Below are positions 30,876-64,000 of a stretch of 64,000 nucleotides of DNA, piece after piece. The first letter of the stretch is position 1. Each line of letters starts with the position of its first letter. Location of the stretch: assembly GCA_016235255.1 (NCBI GenBank), contig JACRLM010000087.1:542-64541 (forward strand), written 5' to 3'. The translations under genes and the position numbers were made by a program. The DNA comes from Nitrospinota bacterium. Lineage in GTDB: Bacteria; Nitrospinota_A; UBA7883; JACRLM01. Below the pieces are notes generated by a model. That model was not told the DNA's origin. It saw nothing but the letters and a program-made list of their open reading frames with translations, and did no database searches.

Positions 30876-31507
30876 GATTTCCCCCCCACGGGCATGAGCG
30901 CCTGTTTTTTCACGGAGCGGCCCGTTTCATCGGCCAGCTCAAATTCGAGGCTCACCGCCTGGGGAAGCGCGCCCCCCTTGTTTTTCGAATCGTATGTGTC
31001 CGCCCACTCGCCGTTGGCGTAATAGCGCAGGCGGAAAGATTTGATTTTGTCCGTCACCTCCATCGCTCCGGCCATTTCTTTGGACGACTCCAGGTCGATT
31101 ACGTACGGATTTTCGGAGCGGACGAGGGTGAGTATTTTCGTTTCCGGATCGGAGACGGTGTACCAGACGATCTGCGCCTGGTCGCTCCCCGTGTCCGGCC
31201 CTGCCATACGGCCGCCAAAGCCCGTGAATTTCAGCTGGCTTAACTCCTCGCCGCCGATTTTCTCCCCCTTGCCGGAAAAGATTCCCTGGGTGTTGTTCGT
31301 GTACATTGCGGCGGACGAAAGGTCCTCGGACATCTTGCGGATGATAAAGCGCGCCGTGTGATAAAGCTCCGCCTGCTCCTCCACCCCCCGCCCCGCGCCC
31401 AGCACGGCGGAGAAGGAGCCGAACACCATTGTGCCGATGATGGCCATGATCGCCACCGCGATAAGCGTCTCGATCAGCGTGAAGCCCGTTTTGTGTCCCG
31501 TTTTCAT
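30872..31507 (-). CDS. gspJ: Type II secretion minor pseudopilin GspJ
   Basis: Prepilin leader + GFTLIETLIAVAIMAI. Confidence 0.8.
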   Translation of the reverse strand: MKTGHKTGFTLIETLIAVAIMAIIGTMVFGSFSAVLGAGRGVEEQAELYHTARFIIRKMSEDLSSAAMYTNNTQGIFSGKGEKIGGEELSQLKFTGFGGRMAGPDTGSDQAQIVWYTVSDPETKILTLVRSENPYVIDLESSKEMAGAMEVTDKIKSFRLRYYANGEWADTYDSKNKGGALPQAVSLEFELADETGRSVKKQALMPVGGKS

Positions 31508-31893
31508 TTCTGCATGTACGCCTTGAGCCTGAAAATCCGGCGCTCTTTCCCGTCATTTGCGCCAAACACATAAACGCCCGTCTCCCACACGCCGCCAAAG
31601 GGGGTCTCCTTCACCTCCACGCGCCAGGCGTAGGCCGGATAGTCCTCCCGCGTCTTTTTCTCCGAGACCCCAGCCTCCGGCAATTGGCCCATGTAAAGTT
31701 TCTCCATCTCCTCGCGCCCCAGCGTCACCGCGTCGGTGAGCGAGACCGCCTCCGCATTCATCAAAAGCGCCTTGTTGTTCGCCGAAAGCAGCGTCACCAG
31801 CGCGATGGAAAGTATCGCCATGGCCACCACCACCTCCAGCAGGGTGAACCCCGCCGTGTCAAACAGGCCTGGCCGTGAATATCTTGAGCGCAT
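31504..31893 (-). CDS. gspI: Type II secretion minor pseudopilin GspI
   Basis: GFTLLEVVVAMAILSIAL prepilin N-terminus; 129 aa. Confidence 0.8.
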   Translation of the reverse strand: MRSRYSRPGLFDTAGFTLLEVVVAMAILSIALVTLLSANNKALLMNAEAVSLTDAVTLGREEMEKLYMGQLPEAGVSEKKTREDYPAYAWRVEVKETPFGGVWETGVYVFGANDGKERRIFRLKAYMQK

Positions 31894-32380
31894 GGTAACC
31901 TTCCAATATTTTCACCCGCCCCGTGAGCGGCGCCACGGTGAGCGTCATCTCTCGCCCCGCCTCGTCGGTCAGGTATATGGCCGCCTCCTCGGTGAACCCT
32001 CCGGGATAAAAGTGGATCGCCGCTTCGCCTTTCACCGCCTTGCCCTCCCCGGCGGTCTGCACGCCGGCGATATGCAGTTGGCCGGAAAGCTTCGTCTTTT
32101 TGGCAAAGGGCAGCCGCGTCTCCTCGAAAACGTTCTCCTTGTTCAAAAGCCACACGTTAAACTCGTTTTTCTCCATGTCCATCGTCAGCCGGTACACCAT
32201 GCCGGTGGCCGCCGCCCTGTCGTACATGTACGATATGGTACCGGCGATCTTCCGCGCCCCGTACTTCAGCCGCGATGCGCCCACGTCCGGCAGACGCGGC
32301 ACGAGCAGCCCCGCCATGACGGCGATGATCACCATCACCACCATAATCTCGATGAGCGTGAACCCGCCGCGCCGCCGCAT
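31859..32380 (-). CDS. gspH: Type II secretion minor pseudopilin GspH
   Basis: MRRRGGFTLIEIMVVMVIIAV prepilin N-terminus; 173 aa. Confidence 0.8.
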   Translation of the reverse strand: MRRRGGFTLIEIMVVMVIIAVMAGLLVPRLPDVGASRLKYGARKIAGTISYMYDRAAATGMVYRLTMDMEKNEFNVWLLNKENVFEETRLPFAKKTKLSGQLHIAGVQTAGEGKAVKGEAAIHFYPGGFTEEAAIYLTDEAGREMTLTVAPLTGRVKILEGYHALKIFTARPV

Positions 32381-32385
32381 GGCCG

Positions 32386-32823
32386 TCAGTCTATCTCCCA
32401 GCTGTTGATGTCGGCGTTGTTCCCTTCGCCGCCGATCTCGCCGTCGGAACCTTTGGACACAAGGTCATACTCGCCGCGGGTTCCCGGTGAGATGTACATA
32501 TACTCGTTCCCCCACGGATCTTTCGGCGTCTTGGCAAGATATCCTTCCGGCCGCCAGTTTTTGGGGATCTGGCCGGAGGTGGGCTTGCTCACCAGGGCCG
32601 TAAGGCCCATTTCCGTCGTGGGGAAAACTCCATTGTCTATCTTGTACATGTTTAGCGCGGTCTCTATCGCCTTGATGTCCGTCTTTGTCTTCGTGATGCG
32701 CGCCTCTTCCGGCCGCCCCATGATCCGGGGGACGATCACCGTGGCCAGTATGCCAAGGATCACCACCACAACGAGTATCTCTATAAGCGTGAAGCCGGCG
32801 CGGCTCCTTTGTGCCAATGTCAT
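32386..32823 (-). CDS. gspG: Type II secretion major pseudopilin GspG
   Basis: [57 protein letters not shown] is a canonical GspG sequence. Confidence 0.9.
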
Positions 32824-32842
32824 TTTGCCTCTTCTCCTTTAT

Positions 32843-34060
32843 CTATTTGACCACCTGGCTTAACTCGAATATGGGGAGCAGTATGGCCATGACTATAAAG
32901 CCGACCACCGCCCCCATCACCAATATGAGCACAGGCTCCACCAGCGACGTTATCGCCGACAGGGCCGTTTCCACCTCGAATTCGTACGCGTCGGATATTT
33001 TTTCCAGCATGTCCGGCAGCGACCCGGTGCGCTCCCCGGCGTCTATCATCTGCGTCACCAGCGGAGGGAAAAGCCCGGAGCGGCGCAATGGCGCGGCGAT
33101 GGGCTGGCCCTCGGTGATGTTCACGATCGCCCCTTCGATGGCCTTTTCGATAAGGGTGTTCCCCACCACACCGCCGGTCACCTTCAAAGATTCAATCAGC
33201 GGCACCCCCCCTTTAAGCAGCGTGGACAGCGCCCTGGCGAACCTGCCGATGGCGGCTGCCCGCGCCAATTCTCCGAACACGGGCAATTTTAAAATCGCCG
33301 TATCAAAACGTTCCTTGCCCTCTTTGGTCTTAAGGTGGCGCTTGATCCATATTCCAAGCCCGATCAGGATCCCTATCAGCGCCCACCACCATTTTGAAAG
33401 GATGTCCGATACGAACAGCAATATGACGGTGGGCATGGGCAGCCCCTGGCGCATGTCCTCGAACATGGACTGCACCTTGGGGGTGACGTACGCCAGCAGG
33501 TACAGCAGCACACCGCTTCCGATCAGTGTCATCACCGCCGGGTATATCATCGCCGCCGTGACCTTGGAACGTTGCCGGAGCCGTTCCTCGCCGAAGGTGG
33601 CAAGGCGGTTGAGCGTCACGTCCAGCGACCCGGATGCCTCTCCGGCCCGCACAAGGTTCACATACAGCGGATCAAACTGGTCCGGATATTCCGCCATCGC
33701 CCCGGCCAATGGTGAACCTTGCATCACCTTTTCGCGGATGCCGGTGACGATTTTCTTGAACCGCACGTTCAAAGTCTGCTCGATGAGCGCGTCCAAAGAC
33801 TCCACCAGCGTCAGCCCTCCGGTGGAAAGGGTGGCCAGATGCCGGGTGAACACGATGACGTCCTTTGTGGATATGCGGTCGGTAAGGCTTTTAAGCGGAT
33901 TGGCCAGAAGCTCCCGCCGCCCGGTGTCCTCCGCCAGGGTGGTTATCAAAAGGCCCTTCTGTTTGAGCTTCGTACGGGCGGAGCGGGGGCTGTCCGCGTC
34001 TATGATCCCGGCGGCTTTGGCCCCGGCCGTGTCGTAACCTTTATATTCGAATACCGGCAT
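32843..34060 (-). CDS. gspF: Type II secretion inner-membrane platform protein GspF
   Basis: 405 aa; two GspF/PilC repeats and three TM segments. Confidence 0.85.
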   Translation of the reverse strand: MPVFEYKGYDTAGAKAAGIIDADSPRSARTKLKQKGLLITTLAEDTGRRELLANPLKSLTDRISTKDVIVFTRHLATLSTGGLTLVESLDALIEQTLNVRFKKIVTGIREKVMQGSPLAGAMAEYPDQFDPLYVNLVRAGEASGSLDVTLNRLATFGEERLRQRSKVTAAMIYPAVMTLIGSGVLLYLLAYVTPKVQSMFEDMRQGLPMPTVILLFVSDILSKWWWALIGILIGLGIWIKRHLKTKEGKERFDTAILKLPVFGELARAAAIGRFARALSTLLKGGVPLIESLKVTGGVVGNTLIEKAIEGAIVNITEGQPIAAPLRRSGLFPPLVTQMIDAGERTGSLPDMLEKISDAYEFEVETALSAITSLVEPVLILVMGAVVGFIVMAILLPIFELSQVVK

Positions 34061-34074
34061 CGTCTATACCTTCA

Positions 34075-35682
34075 TCAATCCCAGTCCGATGTGACCCGCA
34101 CAACTTCTTCAAGCGATGTGGCCCCGGACATCACGCTCTCCGCCGCCTGTTCCCGCATGCTCTTAAAGCCCTTGGCGGCGGCGGCGCGGCGTATCATGGA
34201 AGCGTCCGCCCGCTGCGTTATCAGCGAGCGGATCTCATCGTCTATCAGCAGCACCTCGAAAATGCCAAGCCGCCCTTTGTATCCGGAGTTCGCGCATTCG
34301 GCGCATCCGGCCGGATGGTAAAAGACCGTGTCCGGGGCGAATCTTCCCCGGTCCACCCCGAGTTTTGCGAAATGTTCATCGCTAGGTTTATATTGTTTTC
34401 TGCACGCGGGACATAGCGAGCGCACCAGTCTTTGCGCCAGCGAGGCTGTGAGGGACGAGGAGATCAGGAAAGGCTCTATCCCCATGTCCACAAGCCGTGT
34501 GACGGCCCCGGCGGCGTCGTTCGTATGTATGGTGGAGAAGACAAGGTGGCCTGTGAGCGCCGCCTGCACCGCTATCTGCGCCGTCTCCCTGTCGCGTATT
34601 TCGCCCACCATTATCACGTCAGGATCCTGCCTTAGTATGGAGCGGAGCCCGGAGGCGAATGTGAGCCCCACCTTGGCGTTCACCTGCATTTGCCCGATCC
34701 CGCCCAGCTGGTATTCCACCGGGTCTTCCACGGTGATGATGTTCTTGTCCGGCGAGTTGATGGACGATAGCGCCGAATACAGCGTGGTGGTCTTGCCCGA
34801 TCCCGTGGGACCTGAGACCAGGATGATCCCGTGGGGGGAGCGGATGAGTTTTTCTATCACGTCCCGTACGTCCGCTGGCATCCCAAGCTGGCCGAAGCCG
34901 ACGAGCATGGTGGACTTGTCCAGAAGGCGCATCACCACCCGCTCCCCGTGGGAGGTGGGGATAACGCTCACGCGCACGTCTATCTCCTTGCCCGCGATGA
35001 CGATCTTGAGCCTGCCGTCCTGCGGCAGCCGCTTTTCCGCGATGTCGAGCCCGGCCATGATCTTTATGCGCGACACGATGAGAGACTGGAATTTCTTCGG
35101 CGGCTTGACCACGTTTCGCAGCGTACCATCTATGCGAAACCGCACCGCAAGGTCGCGCTCGTATGGCTCTATATGTATGTCCGACGCTTTTTCCTTTGCC
35201 GACTGCACAAGGATGGAATTTACCAGCCGTATCACCGGCGCCTCGGCGGACGTTTCCAGCAGGTCCTCCGGCAGGTCGTGGACTATGGCCGAAAGGTCCG
35301 CCTCGCCGGCGATGTCGCTCATGATCTCGTTGGCTGATCCGGCGGACATGTCATAGGCCTTGTTGATGGCGTCCATCAGCCCGTCCAAGTCCGTGGCCAC
35401 GGCCTCCACCGGCACGCCGTAGATAAGCCGCAAGTCCGCCATTGGGCGCGGATCGTCCGGCCTGCCGGTTGCCACCACAAGACGCCCTTCCTCAAGCTTT
35501 AACGGCAGCAGTATGTTGTCCCTTGCGAACTGGAACGGCGTTCTGGCCACAAGCTCCGGGTCCAGCGATTTAACGTCCACCGCTTCAATCCAGCCGAGGC
35601 CAAGCTCGTCGGCGATGGCCCTGTTTGGCGAAACGGAGCCGCTTTCACCCGGGGCCAGCGCTGTGTCCGGTCCGGAGTTCAT
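34075..35682 (-). CDS. gspE: Type II secretion ATPase GspE
   Basis: N1E domain; Walker A GPTGSGKTTTLY; Asp/His boxes; tetracysteine motif CPACRKQ...CAEC. Confidence 0.9.
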   Translation of the reverse strand: MNSGPDTALAPGESGSVSPNRAIADELGLGWIEAVDVKSLDPELVARTPFQFARDNILLPLKLEEGRLVVATGRPDDPRPMADLRLIYGVPVEAVATDLDGLMDAINKAYDMSAGSANEIMSDIAGEADLSAIVHDLPEDLLETSAEAPVIRLVNSILVQSAKEKASDIHIEPYERDLAVRFRIDGTLRNVVKPPKKFQSLIVSRIKIMAGLDIAEKRLPQDGRLKIVIAGKEIDVRVSVIPTSHGERVVMRLLDKSTMLVGFGQLGMPADVRDVIEKLIRSPHGIILVSGPTGSGKTTTLYSALSSINSPDKNIITVEDPVEYQLGGIGQMQVNAKVGLTFASGLRSILRQDPDVIMVGEIRDRETAQIAVQAALTGHLVFSTIHTNDAAGAVTRLVDMGIEPFLISSSLTASLAQRLVRSLCPACRKQYKPSDEHFAKLGVDRGRFAPDTVFYHPAGCAECANSGYKGRLGIFEVLLIDDEIRSLITQRADASMIRRAAAAKGFKSMREQAAESVMSGATSLEEVVRVTSDWD

Positions 35683-38243
35683 AAAGGGGCCCCGGCGTTA
35701 CCCGGTTCAACAAGTTCCACCTCTCCATCTGGCTCAGGAGCGGGGGGCGGCGATGGAGCCTGGCTTTCTCCGGAAGGAGCGTCCACCGGTTTTTCCGGTT
35801 GGACCGGCGCGGCTGGCTCAGCATCCAGCGGGGATGGCTGCTCCGGCGCGGCTACTTCGCCCGCCGCCGATTCAGCCGGCTTTTCAGCGGGCGCAACGGG
35901 CACAGGCTGCTCCACCTTTTCCTTCACCCCGGATTTTTTCTCCTCCAGCTTTTTTTCCACTGGCGCGGCTTTTTCCGCGGCTGGTTCCTTGACCTCTTTT
36001 ACGGCGCTTCCAAAATCACCTTCAAGCTGGGTGTTCACGGAAATCTTGCCCCGCTTGGAGTTGGTCACCGCGTCAGCGTCCTCCGCCTTGGTGATAATGT
36101 GCGGCGTGAGGAAGACGATCAGGTTCGTCTTGGTCTTTTGCTTCTTCGCCGATTTGAACAGCCAGCCGAACAGCGGCACGTCGCCGAAGAAGGGTATCTT
36201 CGTCTCCTGGTCGGTAAGGTCGTCACTCATCAGCCCGCCGATGACAATGTTCTGCGAATCATGAACGACAACCGTGGTCTTCACCGAACGGGTGAACGTC
36301 ATGATGTCCTTGGCCACCTGGTCGGCGGTGGGGAGCACCGATGAAATCTCCTGGTACACGGCCATGCGCACCTCGCCGGAGTCGGATATCTGCGGCTTTA
36401 TCTTCAAAGTGATACCCACGTTCTTGCGCTCGAAGGTGGACACCACGTTGCCCCCCGTGGTCTGCGACTGGCTTGTCTGGAACGGCACGTTCTTGGCCAC
36501 GATGATTTCGGCCTCTTCGTTGTCGGTGGTCATGATGTTCGGCGTGGACAGCACGTTCACCCCGCTTTCCGACTGCATGGCGTGAAGCAGCGCCCCGATG
36601 TTGAGGAACTCCGCCCCGCCAAAGGATATCAGGCCGTCCACAACGCCCACCGTCAGCCCCTGCGGGGCGTTGAGGGGGTTTTGCGCCACGGTGTTGATGT
36701 TGCCGTAGTTCGTGCCGCCGATCCCCTGCACGCCGGTGTTGGTGAAGTTGGAAGTGGTGCGCCACTCTATGCCTAACTCCCGCGTCTTGTCGCTGGAGAC
36801 TTCCATGATAAGCGTCTCCACGAACACCTGCTTGCGGCGGATGTCCAGCTTGTCTATCACCTGGTTGAGGGTCTCGTAATCGTCCACGGAGGCTGTGATC
36901 ACAAGGGAGTTTGTGATCTTGTCCGGCGTGATGGTCACCTTGTCCTGCAGCTTGAGCGCCTGCGAGGGGGCGCCCTGCCTGCCTGCCTGGGCCGTGGCGG
37001 GCTGGGCCAGGGTCATGTTGTTTAGCACTTTGGCCACGTTCTCCGCGTCCGCGTTCTTCAGGTAGCGCACGTTCACGCCGCCTCGCCCGGTCTCCGGTTT
37101 CACGTCCAGCCGGTCAACAAGCGATTGTATCTGCTCCATCATCGGCTTTGCGGCGATCACGATGAGCGCGTTGATCCGCTCGTCCGCCATCACCATCACC
37201 TCCGCCTGGCTCCATCCTCCGGTGGCCGTCTGGGCTCCTGCCGCGGCCTGACCAGCCGCCGGAGCGGCCGTCCCTCCGCTTTTTACGTTGCGCGTCTTGA
37301 ATATCTTTTCCACCTTGTCGGCCAGGTCTTTCGCCCCGGCGTACTTTAGCTGGATGACGGCGGTGATCTCCTCATGGGTCTGCGAGTCCAGTTGGTCGAG
37401 GATGGCGGCCAGTTTTTCCACGTTGGAGGCGTTGTCCACGATTATCACCGTGTTGGTGGCGCCAAATGCCGTGATGAAGCTATAGCTGGGGACAAGGGGG
37501 CGCAACACGTTCACTATGTCGTCGGCCTTCACATATTTCAGCGGGAACAGCCTTGTGATCATCCTGTCGCCCATCATGGCGGATGGCTTGAAGGAGCCGC
37601 GCTGGCGGGCGTCCATGGCCGGCACCACCTTTATCACCCGCCCTGCTTCCACCAGGGAATAGCCGTGGACCTCCAGCGTGGACTCCAGCACCCGTATAGC
37701 CTCCGCCGCAGTGACGGGCTGGGGCGATACGATGGTCACTTTGCCTTTCACTTTTTCGTCTATTACGAAGTTGCGTCCGGTGATCTCCGCGATGAACTTC
37801 ACGACAAGCTTGATGTCCATATCGCTAAAATCAATATTCACCTTTTCGCCCGATTTCAAAGGTTCGGCCCGGGTGGACATGTCCACCTTGTTGGCGATCC
37901 CCCCGGCTGGTGATGGAGGTGGAGGGGGGACAGGCGCATCCGGCCGCGCCATGTCCGGCTTTGGCATATCAGGCCGGGCCATATCTGGCCGGGGCTTTGC
38001 CTGCATCACCGGCGTTGCGGGGGGCTGTTGCTGGGAAAACGGGGGAGGAGGAGGCGCGGCGGGGGCCTGTGGGGGCTGTGGCGCCTCCGGGGCGGGCTGC
38101 TGGGCCGCCTGCGCCCCATCGTCCACCACCTCCTGCTGCTGTGCGGCGGCCATGCGCGATCCGGCCGCGATGGCCAGGATGGCGGCGGTCAAAAGCAGCG
38201 CCGCGATGGTCTTTCTTTTTTTGATTCGGGTCTGTCCGGTCAT
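35679..38243 (-). CDS. gspD: Type II secretion secretin GspD with proline-rich N-terminal repeats and long C-terminal low-complexity extension
   Basis: N0/N1-N3 domains (FSDMDIKLVVKFIAEITGRNFVID...) and secretin C-domain (VVVHDSQNIVIGGLMSD...); 854 aa. Confidence 0.9.
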   Translation of the reverse strand: MTGQTRIKKRKTIAALLLTAAILAIAAGSRMAAAQQQEVVDDGAQAAQQPAPEAPQPPQAPAAPPPPPFSQQQPPATPVMQAKPRPDMARPDMPKPDMARPDAPVPPPPPSPAGGIANKVDMSTRAEPLKSGEKVNIDFSDMDIKLVVKFIAEITGRNFVIDEKVKGKVTIVSPQPVTAAEAIRVLESTLEVHGYSLVEAGRVIKVVPAMDARQRGSFKPSAMMGDRMITRLFPLKYVKADDIVNVLRPLVPSYSFITAFGATNTVIIVDNASNVEKLAAILDQLDSQTHEEITAVIQLKYAGAKDLADKVEKIFKTRNVKSGGTAAPAAGQAAAGAQTATGGWSQAEVMVMADERINALIVIAAKPMMEQIQSLVDRLDVKPETGRGGVNVRYLKNADAENVAKVLNNMTLAQPATAQAGRQGAPSQALKLQDKVTITPDKITNSLVITASVDDYETLNQVIDKLDIRRKQVFVETLIMEVSSDKTRELGIEWRTTSNFTNTGVQGIGGTNYGNINTVAQNPLNAPQGLTVGVVDGLISFGGAEFLNIGALLHAMQSESGVNVLSTPNIMTTDNEEAEIIVAKNVPFQTSQSQTTGGNVVSTFERKNVGITLKIKPQISDSGEVRMAVYQEISSVLPTADQVAKDIMTFTRSVKTTVVVHDSQNIVIGGLMSDDLTDQETKIPFFGDVPLFGWLFKSAKKQKTKTNLIVFLTPHIITKAEDADAVTNSKRGKISVNTQLEGDFGSAVKEVKEPAAEKAAPVEKKLEEKKSGVKEKVEQPVPVAPAEKPAESAAGEVAAPEQPSPLDAEPAAPVQPEKPVDAPSGESQAPSPPPAPEPDGEVELVEPGNAGAPL

Positions 38244-39157
38244 TGCACGCTGAACCTCATGGATGATTTTTGACTGTTCCGCACAAGATCTACGTTGAAA
38301 TCCGTCTCATTGCGGAGGGCCTGGAAAAGCTCCAGCCCCTTTTCCGCGGAGTTTAACTCTATGCCGTTTATCCTTTTGACCACGTCCTGGTTCTGCAACC
38401 CGATCTTGTCGAACAGCGAACCTTTGCGTATCGCAAAAATCTTGAATCCGTCGGTGGCCCCTTCCTTGGTCATGTTGGGCACCGCGCGCACGTCGGTCAA
38501 AAGCTGGTTCATGGAGGCCAGTTGCGATTCCAGGTACCGTTTGGATACGGAGTAATCGGTGTCTGACAACTGGCTCACGTCCTGGCCTGGCGTTCCCTTG
38601 GCCGCCATTGCGGCGCCCCTGCCCCCCATTCCGGCCCCCTCGCCGAATTCAACCTCCAAAGACTCCATCCGCCCCTGCCGGTTCAAGATCAGTTTGTTCC
38701 TGAAAATGGCGGATATCATGGCTCCGGAAACCTGGTCCCCCATCTTGAAAAGTTTTTGTTCCTTGCTATCCTGCAACTCTATGGCGGCCAGCCGGTATTT
38801 CCCTTCCGGATCAATCACTGTGCCCACCAGTTTTAAAGGAAGGGAAGTTTTCGGCGCACGCAAGTCCGAGCCCCCCCCCAGCATAGAGCCCATCGCCGGG
38901 CCGCTGTCCACCGTTTCCTCCGGCCGCTGGGCCGAGTTGAATATATTCTTTTGAATAATAAAGCCATAGTCCGTTTCCGCCGCCGGGGGAACAGGACGGA
39001 AAGGCTGGGGCGCAGGTTTGGCCAAAGCTGGTTTGGGAGCGGACGCAAAGCTTGCCGCTATGATCGCCGAAGCCGCCCCGGCGGTCACCCACGCAATCCA
39101 ACCTATTGTAAACAGGTGGATTGCCGTCCATCCTCGTTTCGGTATCCGTATCTTCAT
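38240..39157 (-). CDS. gspC: Type II secretion protein GspC (TM anchor, HR domain, C-terminal PDZ domain)
   Basis: N-terminal TM; PDZ-like C-terminus (FKIFAIRKGSLFDKIGLQNQDVVKRINGIELNS); immediately upstream of gspD. Confidence 0.75.
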   Translation of the reverse strand: MKIRIPKRGWTAIHLFTIGWIAWVTAGAASAIIAASFASAPKPALAKPAPQPFRPVPPAAETDYGFIIQKNIFNSAQRPEETVDSGPAMGSMLGGGSDLRAPKTSLPLKLVGTVIDPEGKYRLAAIELQDSKEQKLFKMGDQVSGAMISAIFRNKLILNRQGRMESLEVEFGEGAGMGGRGAAMAAKGTPGQDVSQLSDTDYSVSKRYLESQLASMNQLLTDVRAVPNMTKEGATDGFKIFAIRKGSLFDKIGLQNQDVVKRINGIELNSAEKGLELFQALRNETDFNVDLVRNSQKSSMRFSVQ

Positions 39158-56033: not shown

Positions 56034-56813
56034 TTACCAGGGAAGCCCAGAGACCGGGCTTGAGGCCTCGGCGGCGGCAAGGGGCTTGCCAAGCCCGGCA
56101 AGATACGCCTCGCGCCCGGCCTGCACCCCTTTTTTAAACGCGATGGCCATCCCCTCCGGGTTCTCCGCCACGGCTATGGCTGTGTTCACCAGCACGGCGT
56201 CCGCTCCCATTTCCAGCGCTTCGGCTGCGTGGGAAGGGGCGCCAAGCCCGGCGTCCACCACAACGGGGACGGTGGCCTGCTCGATTATTATAGCTATGCT
56301 TTCTTTCGTGCGGATCCCCTGATTGCTGCCGATGGGGGAGCCTAGCGGCATGACAGTGGCCGCCCCCATGTCCGCCAGCCTTTTGGCCAGTATGGGATCT
56401 GCGTTGATGTAAGGCAACACCGTAAAGCCTTCCTTGATGAGGATTTGCGCCGCCTTGAGGGTCTCCACCGGGTCGGGAAGAAGGTACCGGGGCTCTGGAG
56501 TCACCTCCAGTTTCACCCAGTCCGATATCCCGGCCCCCCGCGCAAGGCGCGCCAGCTTTACCGCTTCTTCGGCGGTCCGGGCCCCTGATGTGTTCGGCAG
56601 AATAAGGTAACGCGATGGGTCTATATGGGCCATGATATGGTCGTTCGGATTGGAAATGTCCACCCGGCGCAGGGCCACCGTCACTATCTGGGCCCCGGAT
56701 GCCTCCACGGCCTGTTTCATCTGATCCGGCGAACGGAACTTCCCCGTCCCCAGAAGCAGACGCGAGTCAAACTTCCTGCCAGCGATCACCAGTGAATCGT
56801 TTCCAGCAACCAT
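56034..56813 (-). CDS. thiG: Thiazole synthase ThiG
   Basis: [19 protein letters not shown]...[14 protein letters not shown] is a canonical ThiG sequence; start assigned at MVAGND (the track ORF begins at an upstream TTG). Confidence 0.85.
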
Positions 56814-56948
56814 TGCCCCACCATCCAAAATACACCTGTTTTTCAATATAACATAAAGCGCGGACGCCTCCTGTCTTGTGTTGCTTTTAGGGCCGGACAG
56901 GGCATACTATATCCACAAAAATCGGCAATCCGGCGGCAATATCAAGGC

Positions 56949-59168
56949 ATGAGCGAAATATCAAGTTTCGGGCAGTACCTGGTGGACAAGGGGCTTATCA
57001 CCCCCGAACAGCACCAGATCGCCGTCCGCATGCAGAATAAGAACAGGTTGATGGCGGAAATCGCCGTGGAACTCCATTTCCTCCGCCAGGAGGACGTGTA
57101 TGAGATAAGCGATTACATGGAGAAAAACCCCGGCGTCAAATTCGGCGAGGCGGCGGTCTCCCTCCGGTTCATCAACGTCAACCAGCTAAGGTACCTTCTG
57201 GACGTGCGGACCCGTCGCAAGGTGATGCTCGGCGACATCCTGGTGCAGCAGGATTTTATCACCGAGGAAGCGCTGCTGCGGGAGGTGATGGGGTTCAACC
57301 TCAAAAGGCGGATGCTCAAAAAGATACTTCTGGTGGAGCCGAGCCCGACTGTCACCAAGATCCTCGATCACATGCTAAAAAAGTTCGGGTACGAAGTGGC
57401 CAAGGCGAAAAACGGAGAAGAGGCCATGAGCCTTGCCAGGACCTTCGGGCCGGACATCATGATCACCACCGGGATATTGAGCGACATGGACGGCTATTCC
57501 CTGTGCTCCAGGCTTCTTTCCGAGGTGGCCACCGCCGGAATGCACATGATCATGCTCTCGTCCGACGACACCATGACCTCCATAGACAAGGCCTTCGATT
57601 CGGGCGTGAACCATTTCGTGAAAAAGCCGGTGAACGAGACGGAGCTTTTCAACGTCATATACCAGATCGAAAGGGAAGAGGCGAACAAGCGGTCGGAAAA
57701 GATCCTTGTGGTGGACGACAGCGCCGGAGCGCGCCGCCTGATAGTCAAGGAGCTTGTAAGCGCGGGCTTTAACGTGTTCCAGGCGGAGAACGGCATAGAG
57801 GCCATCGAAAAGGCTAGGCGCTTGAAGCCGGACATAATCACGATGGACATCGAGATGCCGCAGATGGACGGGCTGGCCGCCTGCAAGGCGTTAAAGGAGA
57901 GCCCGGAGACCGAGGACATCCCGGTGATACTGGTGTCGTCCCTGTCGTCGCCAATGATGATAGAAAAGGGATTCGACGCGGGCGCGGTGGAGTTTTTCAC
58001 CAAGCCGTTCCCTTCGGGAAGCCTGTCCAGCTATGTGCGGATGCTGTTTGAGACCAGGAAGATACCCCTTGGCGAGCACGTGCTTGTGGTGGACGACAGC
58101 GCGGTCATCCGCCACATTCTCAAGTACATATTCAGGAAGAACGGCTACAAGGTGACCGCCGCGGAGAACGGCGCGCAGGCCATGGACCAGGTGAGAAAGA
58201 CCCAGGTTGACCTTGTGGTGACCGACGCCCAGATGCCGGTGAAGGATGGATTGGAGCTGACCCGGGAGATAAAAGACGACCCGTCGCTAAAGCACATTCC
58301 GGTGATCATCGTCACAGCGTCGTCGTCCAGGGAGAGCATCGTAAGCGGCCTTGCGTCCGGCGCCAACGACTACATAATAAAGCCGTTCGACGAGGCGGAG
58401 CTGATCGCCCGCGCGGGGGTGCATATCCTCAACAAAAGGCTGTATGACGAGGTGGTGCGGGAGAAAGAAAACCTGCGCAGGACCAACGATCTGAAAAACA
58501 AATTCCTTGGAATGGCGGCCCACGACCTTCGGAGCCCCTTGGGGTCCATTTACGGCTTCGCCCAGTTCCTTCGGAACGATTTTGACAGCGTGGACCGCGA
58601 CCAGGTGATGAACATCCTGGACATAGTCAGCGAGGCGTCCGACCAGATGCTCCACCTGATAGACGACCTTTTGGACATCTCAGCCATTGAAAGCGGCAGG
58701 ATAGATCTGGACATCAGGACGCACGATCTTGGCAAGGTTGTGGCCGGCAAGGTTACGCTTTTCAAGAAAATAGCCGAACGCAAGGGGGTCGCCATGCGCT
58801 ACGACGCGCCCCACGGCTCCGCCGCCGCCAGGTTCGATGAAGGAAAGATCAACCAGGTGGTGGACAACCTTCTGAGCAACGCCATCAAATTCACGAACAA
58901 GGGGGGCGAGGTGGCCGTCACGGTGATAGACGGCGTGGACGGCGTCAAGTTCTCCGTGAAGGACAATGGCGTGGGAATACCCAAAGAAGAGCAGAACGCG
59001 CTTTTCAAAAGTTTCGCCAAATTGTCCGTCAAGCCGACGGGGGGGGAGAAAAGCACCGGGCTTGGGCTTGCCATCGTATCGAAAATAATAAAGGCCCACG
59101 ACGGGATAATAGGCGTGGAAAGCGAGCCGGGCAAGGGGAGCGAGTTCTTCTTTATATTGCAGAAGTGA
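56949..59168 (+). CDS. Hybrid sensor histidine kinase: N-terminal MshEN/T2SSE_N-like repeats + three REC domains + HisKA + HATPase_c
   Basis: N-terminal FGQYLVDKGLITPEQ... and LGDILVQQDFITEEALL repeats; three receiver domains each with the conserved Asp/Lys pattern (…TMDIEMPQMDG, …VTDAQMPVKDG); H-box AAHDLRSPL; G-boxes GLGLAIV. Confidence 0.8.
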   Translation: MSEISSFGQYLVDKGLITPEQHQIAVRMQNKNRLMAEIAVELHFLRQEDVYEISDYMEKNPGVKFGEAAVSLRFINVNQLRYLLDVRTRRKVMLGDILVQQDFITEEALLREVMGFNLKRRMLKKILLVEPSPTVTKILDHMLKKFGYEVAKAKNGEEAMSLARTFGPDIMITTGILSDMDGYSLCSRLLSEVATAGMHMIMLSSDDTMTSIDKAFDSGVNHFVKKPVNETELFNVIYQIEREEANKRSEKILVVDDSAGARRLIVKELVSAGFNVFQAENGIEAIEKARRLKPDIITMDIEMPQMDGLAACKALKESPETEDIPVILVSSLSSPMMIEKGFDAGAVEFFTKPFPSGSLSSYVRMLFETRKIPLGEHVLVVDDSAVIRHILKYIFRKNGYKVTAAENGAQAMDQVRKTQVDLVVTDAQMPVKDGLELTREIKDDPSLKHIPVIIVTASSSRESIVSGLASGANDYIIKPFDEAELIARAGVHILNKRLYDEVVREKENLRRTNDLKNKFLGMAAHDLRSPLGSIYGFAQFLRNDFDSVDRDQVMNILDIVSEASDQMLHLIDDLLDISAIESGRIDLDIRTHDLGKVVAGKVTLFKKIAERKGVAMRYDAPHGSAAARFDEGKINQVVDNLLSNAIKFTNKGGEVAVTVIDGVDGVKFSVKDNGVGIPKEEQNALFKSFAKLSVKPTGGEKSTGLGLAIVSKIIKAHDGIIGVESEPGKGSEFFFILQK

Positions 59169-59206
59169 AGCAGGACAATGCGCCATGGCCAAGCCCCGGC
59201 GTCAGG

Positions 59207-59467
59207 CTAATTATAAACGTCCTTTCTGTGGCCTATTTTTAATACATGGATCGTCGCCTGCTGATCCAGCATTTCGCATATAATCCTGTAATCGCCGACC
59301 CTGTAGCGCCACATTCCAGCTTTGTCGCCGATGAGCGCTTTGCCGAATTTTTTGGGCTCTGGCGCCACCCTGTCTTCAAGGTAATCAAGGATGGCCGATT
59401 GCCATTTAGTGTCCAGCTTCTTTAGCTGTTTTCCCGCGGTCGCTGAAAATCTAACGCTCCAGCCCAA
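59207..59467 (-). CDS. relE: RelE/ParE family toxin
   Basis: 86 aa; KIGHRKDVY C-terminus typical of RelE/YoeB-like toxins; overlaps the upstream antitoxin. Confidence 0.65.
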   Translation of the reverse strand: MGWSVRFSATAGKQLKKLDTKWQSAILDYLEDRVAPEPKKFGKALIGDKAGMWRYRVGDYRIICEMLDQQATIHVLKIGHRKDVYN

Positions 59468-59663
59468 GTTCTTTCCTTATTTCTTCAAGACTTTTCGTAG
59501 GCTCATTCCTCTCCAGAACGGCGATTCCGGCAAGGTAATCCTCGCGGTCGTCAAGAAACTCCCGGACGGCCCTTTTGACGTAATAGCTTCGTGAGCGCCC
59601 GGTTTTATCAGCCAGTTTCGCAAGCCGCTCTTCAGTTTCCGGATCAAGCCTTACAGACAACAT
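59451..59663 (-). CDS. relB: RelB/DinJ (ribbon-helix-helix) antitoxin
   Basis: MLSVRLDPETEERLAKLADKTGRSRSYYVKRAVREFL RHH motif. Confidence 0.65.
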   Translation of the reverse strand: MLSVRLDPETEERLAKLADKTGRSRSYYVKRAVREFLDDREDYLAGIAVLERNEPTKSLEEIRKELGLER

Positions 59664-59828
59664 AAATCAATCTCCAATGAGTCATACGATGTCATACACA
59701 ATATGGCATTGTGTGAACTTTCCAGTCAACCTCTTTAACAATGCCGTGCGCTGTATTGCGTCCGCTCCTCCCGCTCCTCTGCTATAATCTCGGTTTTTAC
59801 CGCAAAATATTTTCCGGAGTGACCGAAC

Positions 59829-62459
59829 GTGGAAGAGTTGGCAAGCCAGTACGAGCCTAAAAATGTGGAGGAGCGGTGGTACCGCGAATGGATAAACTCC
59901 GGCGTTTTCAAAGGGGATGACACCTCCTCAAAGCCCGCGTTCTCCATAGTAATACCCCCGCCAAACGTCACCGGCGCCCTGCACATCGGCCACGCCCTGA
60001 ACAATACGCTCCAGGATATCCTTTGCCGCTACAAGCGGATGGACGGCTATAACGTTCTTTGGATGCCGGGAACGGACCACGCCGGGATAGCCACCCAGAA
60101 CGTGGTGGAGAAAAAACTGGCCGCCGAAGGGATAAACCGGCAGGCCCTGGGGCGCGAAAAATTCATAGAAAAGGTGTGGGAGTGGAAGGAGCGGTCCGGC
60201 GGCACGATCATAGGCCAGCTTAAAAGGCTTGGCGCGTCGTGCGACTGGGACCGCGAACGGTTCACCATGGACGAGGGGCTTTCCAGGGCGGTGCGCGAGG
60301 TGTTCGTGTCACTGTACGAGGAGGGGCTCATTTATCGCGGGGAGTACATGATCAACTGGTGCCCCCGTTGCCACACCGCCCTGTCCGACCTGGAGGTGGA
60401 ATATCACGAGCGGGACGGGCATCTGTGGAGTGTTCTGTACCCGATCGAGGAAGGGGGCGAAGGGCTTGTCATCGCCACAACCCGGCCGGAGACGATGCTG
60501 GGGGACACAGCCGTGGCAGTCCACCCGGAGGATGAGAGATATAAGAAGTTCATCGGCAAACATCTGGTCTTGCCTTTGACCAGCCGGAAAATCCCTGTTA
60601 TCGCCGACGAATATGTGGACAGGGCCTTCGGGACCGGCGCCCTGAAAGTGACCCCCGCCCATGATCCCAACGATTTTACGATAGGAAACAGGCACGGCCT
60701 GCAAAGGCTAAAGGTGATCGCCGACGATGGGACGATGAGCGCCGGCGCCGGAGAGCCATTTGCCGGGCACGACAGGTTCAAGGCGCGCAAGATGGTGGTG
60801 GAGGCGCTGGCTGAAAAGGGGCTTCTGGTGAAAGAAGAGCATCACCGCCACGCGGTGGGGCATTGCTACCGGTGCCAGACGGTGATAGAGCCCAACCTTT
60901 CCAAACAGTGGTTCGTGAAGATAGCGCCGCTGGCGGAGCCGGCGATCAAGGCCGTGGAGGATGGCCGTATTCAGTTCGTGCCCAAACACTGGGAAAACCT
61001 TTATTTCGACTGGATGAGAAACATCCGGGACTGGTGCATAAGCCGCCAGATATGGTGGGGCCACCGCATCCCGGCATGGACCTGCGCCGATTGCGGCGAG
61101 GTGATGGTGCTGCGGGAGGATCCGGAGAAGTGCGCCCTTTGCGGCAGCGTGAACCTGAACCGGGAGACCGACGTGCTGGACACATGGTTCTCTTCGGCCC
61201 TATGGCCATTTTCCACCATGGGTTGGCCCGGAAAAACAAAAACGCTGGAGACTTTTTACCCGACCTCCACGCTGGTGACCTCTTTCGACATCATTTTCTT
61301 CTGGGTGGCCAGGATGATAATGATGGGGCTCAAGTTCGCCGGCGATGTCCCTTTCCGGCATGTATATATACACGCCCTCGTGCGGGACGCGGAGGGGCAG
61401 AAGATGAGCAAGTCGAAGGGGAACACCATTGACCCTCTGGACGTGATGGGCAAATACGGCTCCGACGCCATGCGCATGACGTTGACGGCGCTGGCCGCGC
61501 AGGGACGCGACATAAAGCTTTCCGAGGAGCGCATCGAGGGATACCGCAACTTCGCCAACAAACTGTGGAACGCCTCCCGTTTCGCCCTGATGAACCTTGC
61601 CGGGTTCGATTTTTCGAAAACGGGCGTGGACCGCGGCGATCTGGCCCTGGCGGACAGGTGGATACTCTCCCGGCTGCAGAACACGGTCAAAGAGGTGCGT
61701 CACGCGCTGGACGAATACAGGTTCAACGAGGCTGCGTCCGCCATTTACCAGTTCACGTGGCGGGAGTTTTGCGACTGGTACCTGGAATTGATAAAGCCGA
61801 GGTTGTATGGCCACGAAGAGGGGGGCGACGCCGCGCGCAACACCATGGTTTTCACGCTGGACAACATACTGCGCCTGCTCAATCCCATAATGCCTTTCAT
61901 CACCGAGGAATTGTGGCAGAAGATAAAGCCTTCCGGTGATTTGCTGGCCCGTGCGGCATTTCCGGCGGTGGATGATAAGTGGATAGCGCCCGCCATCGAG
62001 AAGGACATGGCGGTGGTGATGGAGACAACGGTGGTGATAAGGAACATCCGGCACGAACTCGGCATAAAACCATCCACGCGCCTTTCGGCGGTGGCGCTGG
62101 TGAAAGACCACGAGGAGGTCCTGGAGACGGTGGCCCGGCAGGCCCCGTTTATCGCGAAACTTTCCAACACGGACATAACGCCGTCGGCCGACCCCGCTTC
62201 GCGCCCGAAAAGTTCCGCAGTGGGCGTGGCGGGGGATGTGGAGGTGTTTGTGAACCTCGAAGGGCTCCCCGAGGCGGCGGAATGGAAGGCCAAGGCATTA
62301 AAGGAGCTGGCCAGGCTGGAAAAAGAGATAGGGATTTTCGAGAAAAAACTCTCCAACGAAAAGTATGTGGCCAACGCCCCCGCCGAAGTTGTGGAGAAAG
62401 ACAGGGAGAAACTGGAAGGCTACATCGCCCGGGCGGCGAAGCTGAGAGGATACCTGTGA
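59829..62459 (+). CDS. valS: Valine--tRNA ligase
   Basis: HIGH (PPPNVTGALHIGH) and KMSKS motifs; 876 aa with C-terminal coiled-coil. Confidence 0.95.
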   Translation: MEELASQYEPKNVEERWYREWINSGVFKGDDTSSKPAFSIVIPPPNVTGALHIGHALNNTLQDILCRYKRMDGYNVLWMPGTDHAGIATQNVVEKKLAAEGINRQALGREKFIEKVWEWKERSGGTIIGQLKRLGASCDWDRERFTMDEGLSRAVREVFVSLYEEGLIYRGEYMINWCPRCHTALSDLEVEYHERDGHLWSVLYPIEEGGEGLVIATTRPETMLGDTAVAVHPEDERYKKFIGKHLVLPLTSRKIPVIADEYVDRAFGTGALKVTPAHDPNDFTIGNRHGLQRLKVIADDGTMSAGAGEPFAGHDRFKARKMVVEALAEKGLLVKEEHHRHAVGHCYRCQTVIEPNLSKQWFVKIAPLAEPAIKAVEDGRIQFVPKHWENLYFDWMRNIRDWCISRQIWWGHRIPAWTCADCGEVMVLREDPEKCALCGSVNLNRETDVLDTWFSSALWPFSTMGWPGKTKTLETFYPTSTLVTSFDIIFFWVARMIMMGLKFAGDVPFRHVYIHALVRDAEGQKMSKSKGNTIDPLDVMGKYGSDAMRMTLTALAAQGRDIKLSEERIEGYRNFANKLWNASRFALMNLAGFDFSKTGVDRGDLALADRWILSRLQNTVKEVRHALDEYRFNEAASAIYQFTWREFCDWYLELIKPRLYGHEEGGDAARNTMVFTLDNILRLLNPIMPFITEELWQKIKPSGDLLARAAFPAVDDKWIAPAIEKDMAVVMETTVVIRNIRHELGIKPSTRLSAVALVKDHEEVLETVARQAPFIAKLSNTDITPSADPASRPKSSAVGVAGDVEVFVNLEGLPEAAEWKAKALKELARLEKEIGIFEKKLSNEKYVANAPAEVVEKDREKLEGYIARAAKLRGYL

Positions 62460-62537
62460 TTGAGTTTACCCGCCTCGGGGTGTTGGTCAAAAAGACCAGC
62501 GTTTTGTCCTTTTGCTCGTTGTAGAACTCACAAAAAC

Positions 62538-62566
62538 ATTGACAGCCGCATCCTTCCGGTGTAAAT
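62538..62566 (+). promoter_or_regulatory. Sigma70-type promoter (TTGACA-N17-TAAATA) driving the FGE-lipoprotein leader
   Basis: Perfect -35 TTGACA at 62538-62543, 17-bp spacer, TAAATA at 62561-62566; AAGGAG RBS at 62597-62602; ATG at 62608. Confidence 0.55.
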
Positions 62567-62607
62567 ACTGTCCTGTCAGTCATAACAGCGTTGCAAAGGA
62601 GACCGAA

Positions 62608-63656
62608 ATGGGCGGTAAGAAAGCGCGGTTGTTGCACTCACTCACTCACTCACTCACTCACTTTCTAACTTTCTAAACACGTTTCTGGCTTTAGCGCTCG
62701 GCGTGGCGCTGGCGTTGCCCATCTCCGCCTGCGAGGCGAAAGCCAAACCGTTCAAGGGCGAAACCTACCGCACGCTGGACGGCGGCACAGTCGTAAGAAT
62801 CTACTCCGCCGATGAGCTGGAAATAAAAAAGGAGCGCGCCCCCAACATCGTGGCGAAGTACACCCTCGAAGAGGGGGGTAAAAAGCTCCGCGTATCGTTC
62901 ACCGCCCTGGGCACGACCACAGCCGTCTATTACGAAATAACAAATGACGGAATAGTTGATGAGCATGGGGCCACACTGTACTCCACCGCCGCCCTCGATT
63001 CACGTTTGAAGGGGTTGCGGGCGGAAGCGTCGAAACTGCTCGTCCCTGTTAAAGGCGGTTGTTTCGACATGGGTGACACGTTCGGGAATGGCGGTTCGGA
63101 TGAGAAACCGGTTCACCGCGTCTGCCTGGACGATTTCAAGATGGACAAGTACGAGGTTACGCAGTCAGCGTACCAGTCGGCGATGGGGAATAACCCTTCA
63201 CACCATAAAGACTGTCCGGACTGCCCGGTGGAGCAGGTGACGTGGGACGAGGCGAAGGGGTATTGCGAAAACGTAGGTAAACGATTGCCGACGGAGGCGG
63301 AGTGAGAGTATTCAGCGCGGGAGGGCGGGAAGAATGTGAAATACGGGACAGGGAAGAACGAGCTAAGCATGAACGACGCGAATTACGATTACAAGGGGAC
63401 GAAACCTGTGGGGAGCTACGCGCCCAACGCGCTGGGTTTGCATGACATGGCTGGCAACGTGTGGGAATGGGTGGCGGACTGGTACGGCGCTTATTCTTCG
63501 GGAGAGCAAAAGAACCCGAAGGGGCCTTCGGATGGGACGCATCTTGTGTTGCGCGGCGGTTCGTGGGGCGCTTACCCGGACGACTTGCGCGCGTCCGTTC
63601 GCCGCGTCGTTCCGGCGTACCGTAGCGGCGCTAGCGGCTTTCGTTGCGTCCAGTAA
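62608..63656 (+). pseudogene. Formylglycine-generating-enzyme (FGE-sulfatase/SUMF1) domain lipoprotein gene, disrupted: frame-shifted at the (CACT)7 tract and carrying an in-frame TGA (Trp codon replaced)
   Basis: FGE motifs RLPTEAE*EY, HDMAGNVWEWVADWY, RGGSW; TGA at 63303-63305 aligns to the conserved Trp of AEWEY; the upstream ATG at 62608 is out of frame by +1 with the lipoprotein signal (…LALPISAC). Confidence 0.6.
62635..62662 (+). repeat. Perfect tetranucleotide microsatellite (CACT)7 inside the 5' coding leader of the FGE-domain lipoprotein gene
   Basis: Seven uninterrupted CACT units; they lie between the RBS-associated ATG (62608, frame 1) and the signal-peptide/lipobox coding frame (frame 0). 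Confidence 0.9.
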
Positions 63657-64000
63657 GAGTTACTCTTTTCCCTTTTAAACCCAGATTTTTCATTTGAATT
63701 GTAGGGGCGACCCGGTGGGTCGCCCCTACATCGGATCGCTTACCGAAACCACTGATTTTGTTTCCATTAAAACAATGTTCGAGCGTAAAATCGAATTCCA
63801 GTTTCTAAATGCGGAATCAGTCCTGATCTCATACAAAACCTGGCGCTAAAAAAGTGATCGCCTCATCACCAACTTCTACCCCTGTTCGGCAATCTAATCA
63901 ATTGCTTGCTCTAATGGCTTCCATTAGAAACCAGTCCTAATGGAAAATCTCGGTTAAACTCTTACGCTTTTTTCCGCTCCGGATTTTTCATCCTGATCCC

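Follow-up and report, generated by a model that had tools for sequence, protein, structure and literature searches.

A tetranucleotide tract in the 5′ coding region of a lipoprotein gene

The DNA analysed here, referred to as the window, is a 64-kb stretch (64,000 nucleotides) of contig JACRLM010000087.1 (65,981 nucleotides) from a Nitrospinota bacterium. Near its end lies a gene for a predicted lipoprotein with an FGE-sulfatase domain, in which seven perfect CACT repeats stand between the start codon and the body of the protein. One ortholog, on a metagenome contig that we call L002, serves for comparison throughout. The gene comprises the following features:

62533 to 62567, forward strand: promoter-like region, with the −35 element TTGACA at 62539 to 62544, a 17-nucleotide spacer and a weak −10 element TAAATA at 62562 to 62567
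62596 to 62610, forward strand: ribosome-binding site AAGGAG (62596 to 62601), a 6-nucleotide spacer and the start codon ATG 62608, checked base by base; the open reading frame of the ortholog begins at the homologous ATG
62619 to 63302, forward strand: first part of the gene body, with the hydrophobic core FLALALGVALAL, the lipobox ISAC (62721 to 62732), then an N-terminal domain that is beta-rich, followed by a linker helix and by the first half of the FGE-sulfatase/C-type-lectin domain
62635 to 62662, forward strand: perfect tetranucleotide tract (CACT)7 (Tandem Repeats Finder: period 4, 7.0 copies, 100% matches)
62660 to 62676, forward strand: 8-nucleotide direct duplication, two copies of ACTTTCTA abutting the tract (period 8, 2.1 copies), also present in L002
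63303 to 63305, forward strand: in-frame TGA replacing the Trp codon of an LPTEAE-W-EY motif; TGG in the ortholog
63306 to 63656, forward strand: second part of the gene body in the same frame, with the rest of the FGE-sulfatase domain and the stop codon TAA at 63654 to 63656
63525 to 63653, forward strand: C-terminal 43 codons with variable-region-like divergence, hardly any of the changes relative to the ortholog falling outside codon positions 1 and 2

An initial annotation, made from the sequence alone, had described this locus as a slipped-strand switch gating translation of the lipoprotein. The seven repeats, AAGGAG and ATG 62608 on which that description was built were confirmed with Tandem Repeats Finder and by base-by-base inspection, which also verified the coordinates of the −35 and −10 elements. 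The tract begins 27 nucleotides after ATG 62608, following nine codons (MGGKKARLL), and encodes (HSLT)n, which separates the charged n-region of the signal peptide from its hydrophobic core. With seven units the product of the ATG frame is MGGKKARLLHSLTHSLTHFLTF*, ending at 62674 to 62676 soon after the repeat. The body frame is closed by a TAA at 62616 to 62618 and open from 62619; between 62619 and 62702 it contains no ATG, GTG or TTG, and its first candidate start is GTG 62703, for which no Shine-Dalgarno sequence could be read and which would place only MALALPISA before the lipobox cysteine.

To test the frames, the gene was rebuilt in silico with one to twelve units. Two, five, eight or eleven units join the ATG to the body, giving a product that begins MGGKKARLL-(HSLT)n-HSLSNFLNTFLALALGVALALPISAC, whereas all other counts yield peptides of 14-26 residues. 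These short products end at one of two codons, TAA 62666-62668 or TAA 62674-62676, one for each OFF frame, such that both OFF frames stop within 15 nucleotides. Both stop codons come from the ACTTTCTA duplication, and loss of one copy (−8 nucleotides) restores the frame in the same way as loss of two CACT units. The frame arithmetic of the initial annotation (five, eight or eleven units ON) was therefore correct, with two units to be added, and so was the architecture it had recognized as that of a translational simple sequence repeat (SSR) switch: a tract in the 5′ coding region, stop codons in both OFF frames, and ON states at two, five, eight or eleven units.

It might be argued that protein is nevertheless made at seven units, either through initiation at another codon or through programmed ribosomal frameshifting induced by the repeat. 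No evidence supporting this was found, apart from the fact that GTG 62703 is the annotated start: the NCBI gene call covers only 62703-63305, from this GTG to the in-frame TGA, and describes a 200-residue “formylglycine-generating enzyme family protein” (P0002). The absence of any earlier ATG, GTG or TTG in the open body frame, and of a Shine-Dalgarno sequence at GTG 62703, agrees with the earlier view that the body frame lacks a good start; GTG 62703 would provide a leader of 9 residues before the lipobox cysteine, no X XXY YYZ slippery heptamer was seen in the sequence, and the TGA would truncate the product in any case. Of all the explanations weighed here, we consider this one the least credible. 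The P0002 annotation conceals the nonsense codon as well as the true start, which is frameshifted, and its name carries no pseudogene flag.

The tract is exceptional within the DNA surveyed. A 12-nucleotide CACT pattern is expected 0.00 times (100 dinucleotide-preserving shuffles), and (CACT)7 is the sole repeat in the window with a period of at least 2 and more than 4 units. In ~1.2 Mb of fetched loci, tetranucleotide tracts of at least 5 units occurred only at this locus, such that no further CACT/AGTG tract of this length, as the initial annotation had proposed to look for, came to light; over-representation of such tracts was not seen in the window as scanned. The second-longest tetranucleotide repeat of the window is (CCTG)4 at 36974-36989, inside a long open reading frame region (35682-38306).

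Upstream of the ribosome-binding site, the promoter had been called a near-consensus sigma70 promoter. This holds for the −35 hexamer, a perfect consensus, but not for TAAATA, which agrees with TATAAT at three of six positions and lacks the final T; the TTGACA/TAAATA site was absent from the output of a consensus promoter scan. In an alignment with L002, a block of 22 nucleotides around the −35 element is identical although the upstream gene differs, which argues that the block is functional.

A five-unit ortholog and the nonsense codon of the window copy

A search of 5.8 billion proteins returned one close full-length relative, P0001 (352 residues, 83% amino acid identity, N-terminus MNIKKARLLHSLTHSLSNFLNTFLALALGVALALPISAC). 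It is encoded on L002 (JGI 3300036766, Ga0373622_0267614), where the gene is 93% identical in nucleotides to that of the window. L002 carries (CACT)5 at the same site, with identical flanks of 12 nucleotides on the left and 22 on the right, and its homologous ATG is in frame with an uninterrupted 352-residue open reading frame. The five-unit allele is thus the predicted ON state, at a count for which this had been foreseen. Because the L002 frame runs uninterrupted from the homologous ATG with five units, the comparison shows that ATG 62608 is, as predicted, the real start, that the tract is translated and that the number of units has changed between the lineages. The tract is therefore polymorphic in length, out of frame with seven units (window and Logan contigs L001 and L094, see below) and in frame with five (L002), these being the only two alleles known.

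More distant homologs (at most 67% identity) have ordinary short lipoprotein signals without a repeat, and the tract therefore appears to be a recent feature of this lineage. Wider searches did not extend the series of alleles. A metagenome-wide scan for two units preceded by the left flank (GCGGTTGTTGCACTCACT) found 11 loci; none had a tract, and all were chance matches. A scan of the contigs of species-representative genomes with P0001, which did not include the MAG (metagenome-assembled genome) of the window, gave 80 FGE-sulfatase loci, the best of them (L014) sharing 59% identity and having neither a tract nor an adjoining retroelement. In viral contigs the right flank had no match, and relatives did not exceed 39% identity. 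When the N-terminal 146 residues alone were used as a protein query, only P0002 was returned, such that this protein database holds no further alleles, and exact-protein look-ups with the 200-residue call P0002 found nothing on record.

Logan contigs retrieved by exact-protein look-up provided a further view of the window sequence. L001 (SRR12113393) is identical to 56526-62664 of the window and has seven units. L094 (SRR12113395) and L095 (SRR12113393) represent the same contig in two samples and match the window at every position between the tract and the window end; L094 has seven units, L095 starts inside the tract, and both contain the in-frame TGA. Seven units together with the TGA are thus the consensus in three assemblies (the window, SRR12113393 and SRR12113395), which probably sample one population. 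These data bear on the idea that the count of seven is an assembly or sequencing artefact and that the gene is really in frame. Short-read assembly can get repeat counts wrong, and the Logan contigs do break at the tract; however, the MAG contig and the Logan contigs of two runs all have seven units with identical flanks, and at 28 nucleotides the tract is shorter than the assembly k-mer of 31, so that the count is read directly. The check for an assembly artefact that the initial annotation had called for accordingly found none, and we regard this explanation as very improbable.

The position of the contig breaks was informative in another respect. All Logan contigs, which we take to have been built with k=31, break at the tract, although 28 nucleotides should not break such an assembly. 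We simulated a k=31 de Bruijn graph for pure and mixed tract lengths. A pure seven-unit tract produced no break, whereas seven units mixed with any longer allele produced breaks at TTG(CACT)7 / TG(CACT)7T and at G(CACT)7TT / (CACT)7TTC; mixture with six or five units moved the breaks to other points, which were not seen in the contigs. Two of the three contig ends at the tract fit the prediction for a longer allele exactly: L094 opens with the 31-mer TG(CACT)7T, and L001 closes with G(CACT)7TT. PCR stutter mostly removes units. The breaks are suggestive of alleles of at least eight units mixed with the seven-unit allele in the sampled populations.

The initial annotation took seven units to be the OFF state of an otherwise intact gene. 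This was not supported. The body frame of the window contains a TGA inside the FGE-sulfatase domain that had escaped the initial annotation, and reads LPTEAE-TGA-EYSAREGG: a TGG codon has become TGA at a tryptophan that is invariant in an alignment of 30 family sequences, and the change is also present in L094 and L095. Recoding of TGA as tryptophan was considered and rejected, since valS, the upstream gene, itself ends in TGA. With any in-frame number of units the window would yield a product of 225-237 residues lacking the last ~115, i.e. half of the domain and the entire C-terminal tip. An in-frame tract alone would therefore not restore the full product of this gene, whereas the L002 ortholog is intact. 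The domain core shows a ratio of nonsynonymous to synonymous divergence (dN/dS) of 0.08 relative to the ortholog, which argues that the gene was strongly constrained until recently. Because slippage alone gives only 225-237 residues, the window copy is most likely a pseudogene that was inactivated recently or a relic locked in the off state, and not a switch about to flip.

An actively phase-variable gene that is now OFF, and that regains a functional lipoprotein of full length when one unit is added or two are lost, would account for the architecture, for the existence of an ON ortholog, for contig ends like those expected when longer tracts are mixed in, and for a domain core that was under strong purifying selection until recently. 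Against it stand the TGA at an invariant tryptophan in all three assemblies, the evidence that TGA is a genuine stop in this genome, and ON lengths that encode at most 237 residues without half of the domain or any of the variable tip. Since the TGA truncates every ON product, such a switch would need the TGA to be a variant that is not fixed, and we judge a working switch at this locus to be improbable.

An FGE-sulfatase fold without catalytic cysteines and its proposed link to a retroelement

The in-frame product begins with a KKAR n-region, the hydrophobic core FLALALGVALAL and the lipobox ISAC, its cysteine lying at residue 35, 39, 43 or 47 depending on the number of units. The lipobox was checked by regular expression only, with the pattern [LVI][ASTVI][GAS]C; homologs carry VSGC, TAAC and LGGC at this site. 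The reconstructed protein matches Pfam PF03781 (FGE-sulfatase) with E=1.2e-51, and Foldseek retrieved FGE structures at E ~1e-14 with target-normalised TM-scores of ~0.6. The best PDB matches by sequence and fold are FGE enzymes and, almost equally, TvpA of Treponema denticola (2y3c; sequence E=2.9e-28, target-normalised TM-score 0.62). Fold comparison left the choice between an FGE enzyme and a variable protein of a diversity-generating retroelement (DGR) undivided, as both match equally, and it was inspection of the cysteines that decided against an enzyme. In HMMER alignments, Cys336 and Cys341 of human FGE (MCHRSYC, C-x4-C) correspond to G/V in P0001 and to A/L in the window, and the segment RGGSW...RAS contains no cysteine. 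Because both copper-binding catalytic cysteines are missing, the lipoprotein is predicted not to be an FGE enzyme.

A different role was suggested by the gene that follows the ortholog. Directly 3′ of the L002 gene lies a partial open reading frame of 42 residues, cut off by the contig end, that matches the NCBIfam family DivGenRetAVD (NF033474, E=3.6e-7) and Pfam bAvd (E=0.028). The C-termini of FGE-sulfatase proteins are the largest class of DGR targets, one example being TvpA, which has no FGE activity (PMC5758913).

The C-terminus of the window gene was then compared with that of the ortholog. In the last 35 codons (from RGGSW), differences at codon positions 1, 2 and 3 number 8, 6 and 2, compared with 19, 22 and 53 in the rest of the gene (Fisher p=0.002). 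By the method of Nei and Gojobori, applied to this single pair, dN/dS is 0.50 for the N-terminal domain plus linker, 0.08 for the FGE/C-type-lectin core and 4.1 for the last 43 codons (dS 0.06, dN 0.26). The pattern of the last 43 codons is the one expected of a DGR variable region. Thus, because Avd adjoins the ortholog and the last 43 codons evolve at a dN/dS of ~4 against 0.08 in the core, the protein is predicted to be a binding lipoprotein of the DGR-target type with the fold of a C-type lectin. The SUMF1/FGE-family enzyme proposed by the initial annotation could not be upheld in view of the absent cysteines, the Avd fragment beside the ortholog and the DGR-like evolution of the C-terminus.

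An Avd fragment with 83% identity occurs on Logan contig L108 (SRR22387951), again truncated and after a different FGE-sulfatase gene. Here (L108 185-2503), a 467-residue FGE-sulfatase gene is followed by a truncated Avd-like open reading frame of 66 residues, and on the opposite strand are a MazE-type antitoxin gene and an unannotated neighbouring open reading frame. No template repeat and no reverse transcriptase were found on L108, and the locus looks like a decayed DGR.

The window copy lacks these partners within the DNA at hand. There is no second copy of 63525-63653 in the window that could be a template repeat, no open reading frame with a YxDD motif in any frame, no reverse transcriptase motif and no Avd nearby; no retroelement lies within the 62.6 kb upstream or the 0.34 kb downstream. 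The window copy thus looks like an orphaned target of the DGR type, as far as can be judged from the sequence.

These findings bear on the possibility that the repeat is incidental, (HSLT)n being a tolerated low-complexity insert in the signal peptide, and the slippage frameshift and the nonsense codon being two hits in a gene lost after its retroelement. Two independent lesions, with neither Avd nor template repeat nor reverse transcriptase nearby, are what this explanation would lead one to expect. The tract is moreover the sole one of its kind in 64 kb, the lineage is free-living and environmental while the literature describes repeat switches mainly in host-adapted bacteria, and purity of the tract over 7% divergence is unremarkable (~0.25 by chance on our own estimate). 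On the other hand, a perfect tetranucleotide tract of 20-28 nucleotides is beyond chance and has been retained at one site in the two lineages; its position is precisely one at which a frameshift does away with the entire protein, stop codons for both OFF frames follow it immediately, and the contig breaks suggest heterogeneity in length. We therefore regard an incidental repeat as a serious alternative that is unlikely to be correct.

The surroundings of the gene contain the following features:

59829 to 62459: valS, with the stop codon TGA at 62457 to 62459
62476 to 62506, forward strand: terminator-like hairpin 3′ of valS, a 13-pair stem followed by a T-run (TCCTTTTGCT)
63700 to 63730, forward strand: perfect 14-bp hairpin without a T-run, z = −5.0, 44 nucleotides after the stop codon

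The terminator-like hairpin at 62476-62506 would set the lipoprotein gene apart from valS transcription. The downstream hairpin lies at the start of the segment from the gene stop to the window end (63657-64000, 43% GC), in which no open reading frame was found in six frames, and may represent either a variant terminator or what is left of a DGR-target hairpin. Scans of the window for Rfam families and tRNAs gave no hits. Comparison of L002 1-500 and 1556-1769 with window 62300-62530 and 63657-64000 showed that homology to the flank of the ortholog ends ~25 nucleotides past the stop codon, and that a promoter-plus-gene unit of ~1.15 kb stands in different contexts: it follows valS in the window, whereas L002 has it between a CCG-domain gene and avd. 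The difference suggests that the unit moved as a cassette or that its neighbourhood was rearranged. Both Logan contigs that extend from the tract terminate at one point, 26 nucleotides past the window end.

Just upstream of valS, on the minus strand, lies a ParE-toxin/RHH-antitoxin gene pair (59207-59663), and beyond it a hybrid histidine kinase/response regulator (56949-59168); both were identified by Pfam marks on the identical Logan contig L001. Elsewhere in the window, 31431-33163 contains four diverged copies (63-71% identity) of a 56-nucleotide segment at spacings of 367-879 nucleotides, which at a guess are the conserved termini of tandem paralogous genes.

A proposed history of the locus and its relation to known systems

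The explanation that we favour, and hold to be probable though well short of certain, is that this is a repeat-gated gene for a lipoprotein of the DGR-target type, here both out of frame and carrying a nonsense mutation, and thus a recently dead or locked-off contingency gene. According to the model, the gene would be transcribed from its own promoter-like region, and translation from ATG 62608 would pass through the tract as (HSLT)n only when n is 2, 5, 8 or 11, any other n leading to one of the two TAA codons just past the tract. The product would be exported and lipidated at the cysteine of the ISAC lipobox, presumably to be exposed at the cell surface, where the C-terminal domain with its FGE-sulfatase/C-type-lectin fold would be displayed to bind ligands without catalysis. 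In the sister lineage represented by L002, the tip of this domain appears to have been diversified by a diversity-generating retroelement. The window population would have come to hold seven units out of frame and to have acquired the TGG to TGA change, with no Avd, template repeat or reverse transcriptase nearby. That slippage at the tract is fast, reversible and selected as a switch is what we infer.

Several observations weigh against this explanation. Concerning the switch, only two alleles are known (five and seven units), from lineages 7% apart, and one change in length shows no high rate. At 5-7 units the tract is also short; the well-studied Haemophilus tracts are reportedly longer, a point attributed to De Bolle et al. 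in 2000. The window has no second such tract, and so nothing points to switch genes being present as a set across the genome. In the contig breaks, each sample shows just one of the two predicted points, and L095 starts 1 nucleotide past the predicted point, an offset that could mean that (CACT)7TTC also occurs in another sequence and that no longer allele of this locus is involved. Concerning the protein, the lipobox cysteine at residue 39-43 stands later than in typical lipoproteins, and the proline at −4 relative to this cysteine presumably fails the PROSITE lipoprotein pattern. Concerning the retroelement, the 42-residue Avd fragment scores below the family cut-off (30 vs 80 bits), the variable-region pattern comes from a pairwise comparison, and neither copy shows a template repeat or a reverse transcriptase, the L002 contig ending within avd. 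Finally, since the three assemblies likely represent one population, the TGA could be a majority variant that is not fixed.

We also considered a bolder explanation, in which a surface lipoprotein of this Nitrospinae lineage is diversified at two levels, by a repeat switch in the signal peptide and by a DGR that rewrites the ligand-binding tip, while longer tracts, possibly the in-frame eight units, coexist with the seven-unit allele. We put this forward tentatively, as possible yet rather doubtful. If true, a free-living environmental bacterium would possess an SSR contingency switch, one that is the first to be coupled to a DGR target; no paper placing a repeat-based frame switch on a DGR target was found in the literature searched.

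As the window copy is most likely dead, it is itself of limited importance. The broader interest of the locus lies in the setting: on/off switching by repeats is textbook knowledge in host-adapted pathogens and hardly documented in free-living environmental bacteria, and the full architecture of such a switch, with in-frame and out-of-frame alleles, is found here in uncultured Nitrospinae. Should the retroelement link hold, it would show that in bacteria a single surface protein can be subject to two programmed mutational mechanisms, one affecting whether it is made and the other what it binds, which is relevant to how cells evade phages or predators and attach to particles in the ocean or subsurface. 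For annotation, “FGE family enzyme” is a misleading name for such genes, and pipelines hide them by calling a truncated open reading frame from the first downstream start.

Among known systems, the Pfam FGE-sulfatase match and the PDB fold matches are shared with SUMF1/FGE, whereas the missing catalytic cysteines, the extra beta-rich N-terminal domain and lipoprotein signal, and the lack of any adjoining sulfatase gene noted here set the protein apart. In the opa genes of Neisseria, CTCTT repeats lie in the region coding for the signal peptide and their number sets the frame of an outer-surface protein. The present gene likewise has a frame-setting repeat inside its signal-peptide coding sequence; however, opa is a multigene family of a pathogen with a pentanucleotide repeat and a beta-barrel product, while here a single locus combines a tetranucleotide with a lipoprotein.

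The closest parallel for the tract is in Haemophilus, where tetranucleotide tracts directly follow the start codon, tetrapeptide repeats are found at the N-terminus only and early termination results from a frameshift (PMC2651432). As in lic1A (CAAT), hgp (CCAA) and mod (AGTC) of Haemophilus influenzae, a perfect tetranucleotide tract follows the start and the product is surface-exposed, here by prediction. Unlike these loci, the tract is short, at 5-7 units, no group of similar loci was seen in the 64-kb window, there is a second, irreversible lesion, and CACT/AGTG is absent from the text of PMC2651432, which reports nine Haemophilus repeat units. The host also differs, being a free-living Nitrospinae MAG instead of a host-adapted pathogen; enrichment of N-terminal repeats has been reported mainly in pathogens (PMC3315296).

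With regard to the protein, the locus differs from those of the DGR variable proteins TvpA (Treponema denticola) and LdtA, a lipoprotein of Legionella, in that neither copy shows a template repeat or a reverse transcriptase. It resembles DGR target loci in the order of genes, the L002 ortholog being followed by an Avd gene fragment, and in a C-terminus with a dN/dS of ~4. Like TvpA and LdtA, the product combines an FGE-sulfatase fold without catalytic cysteines and a variable C-terminus (PMC5758913) with predicted export as a lipoprotein.

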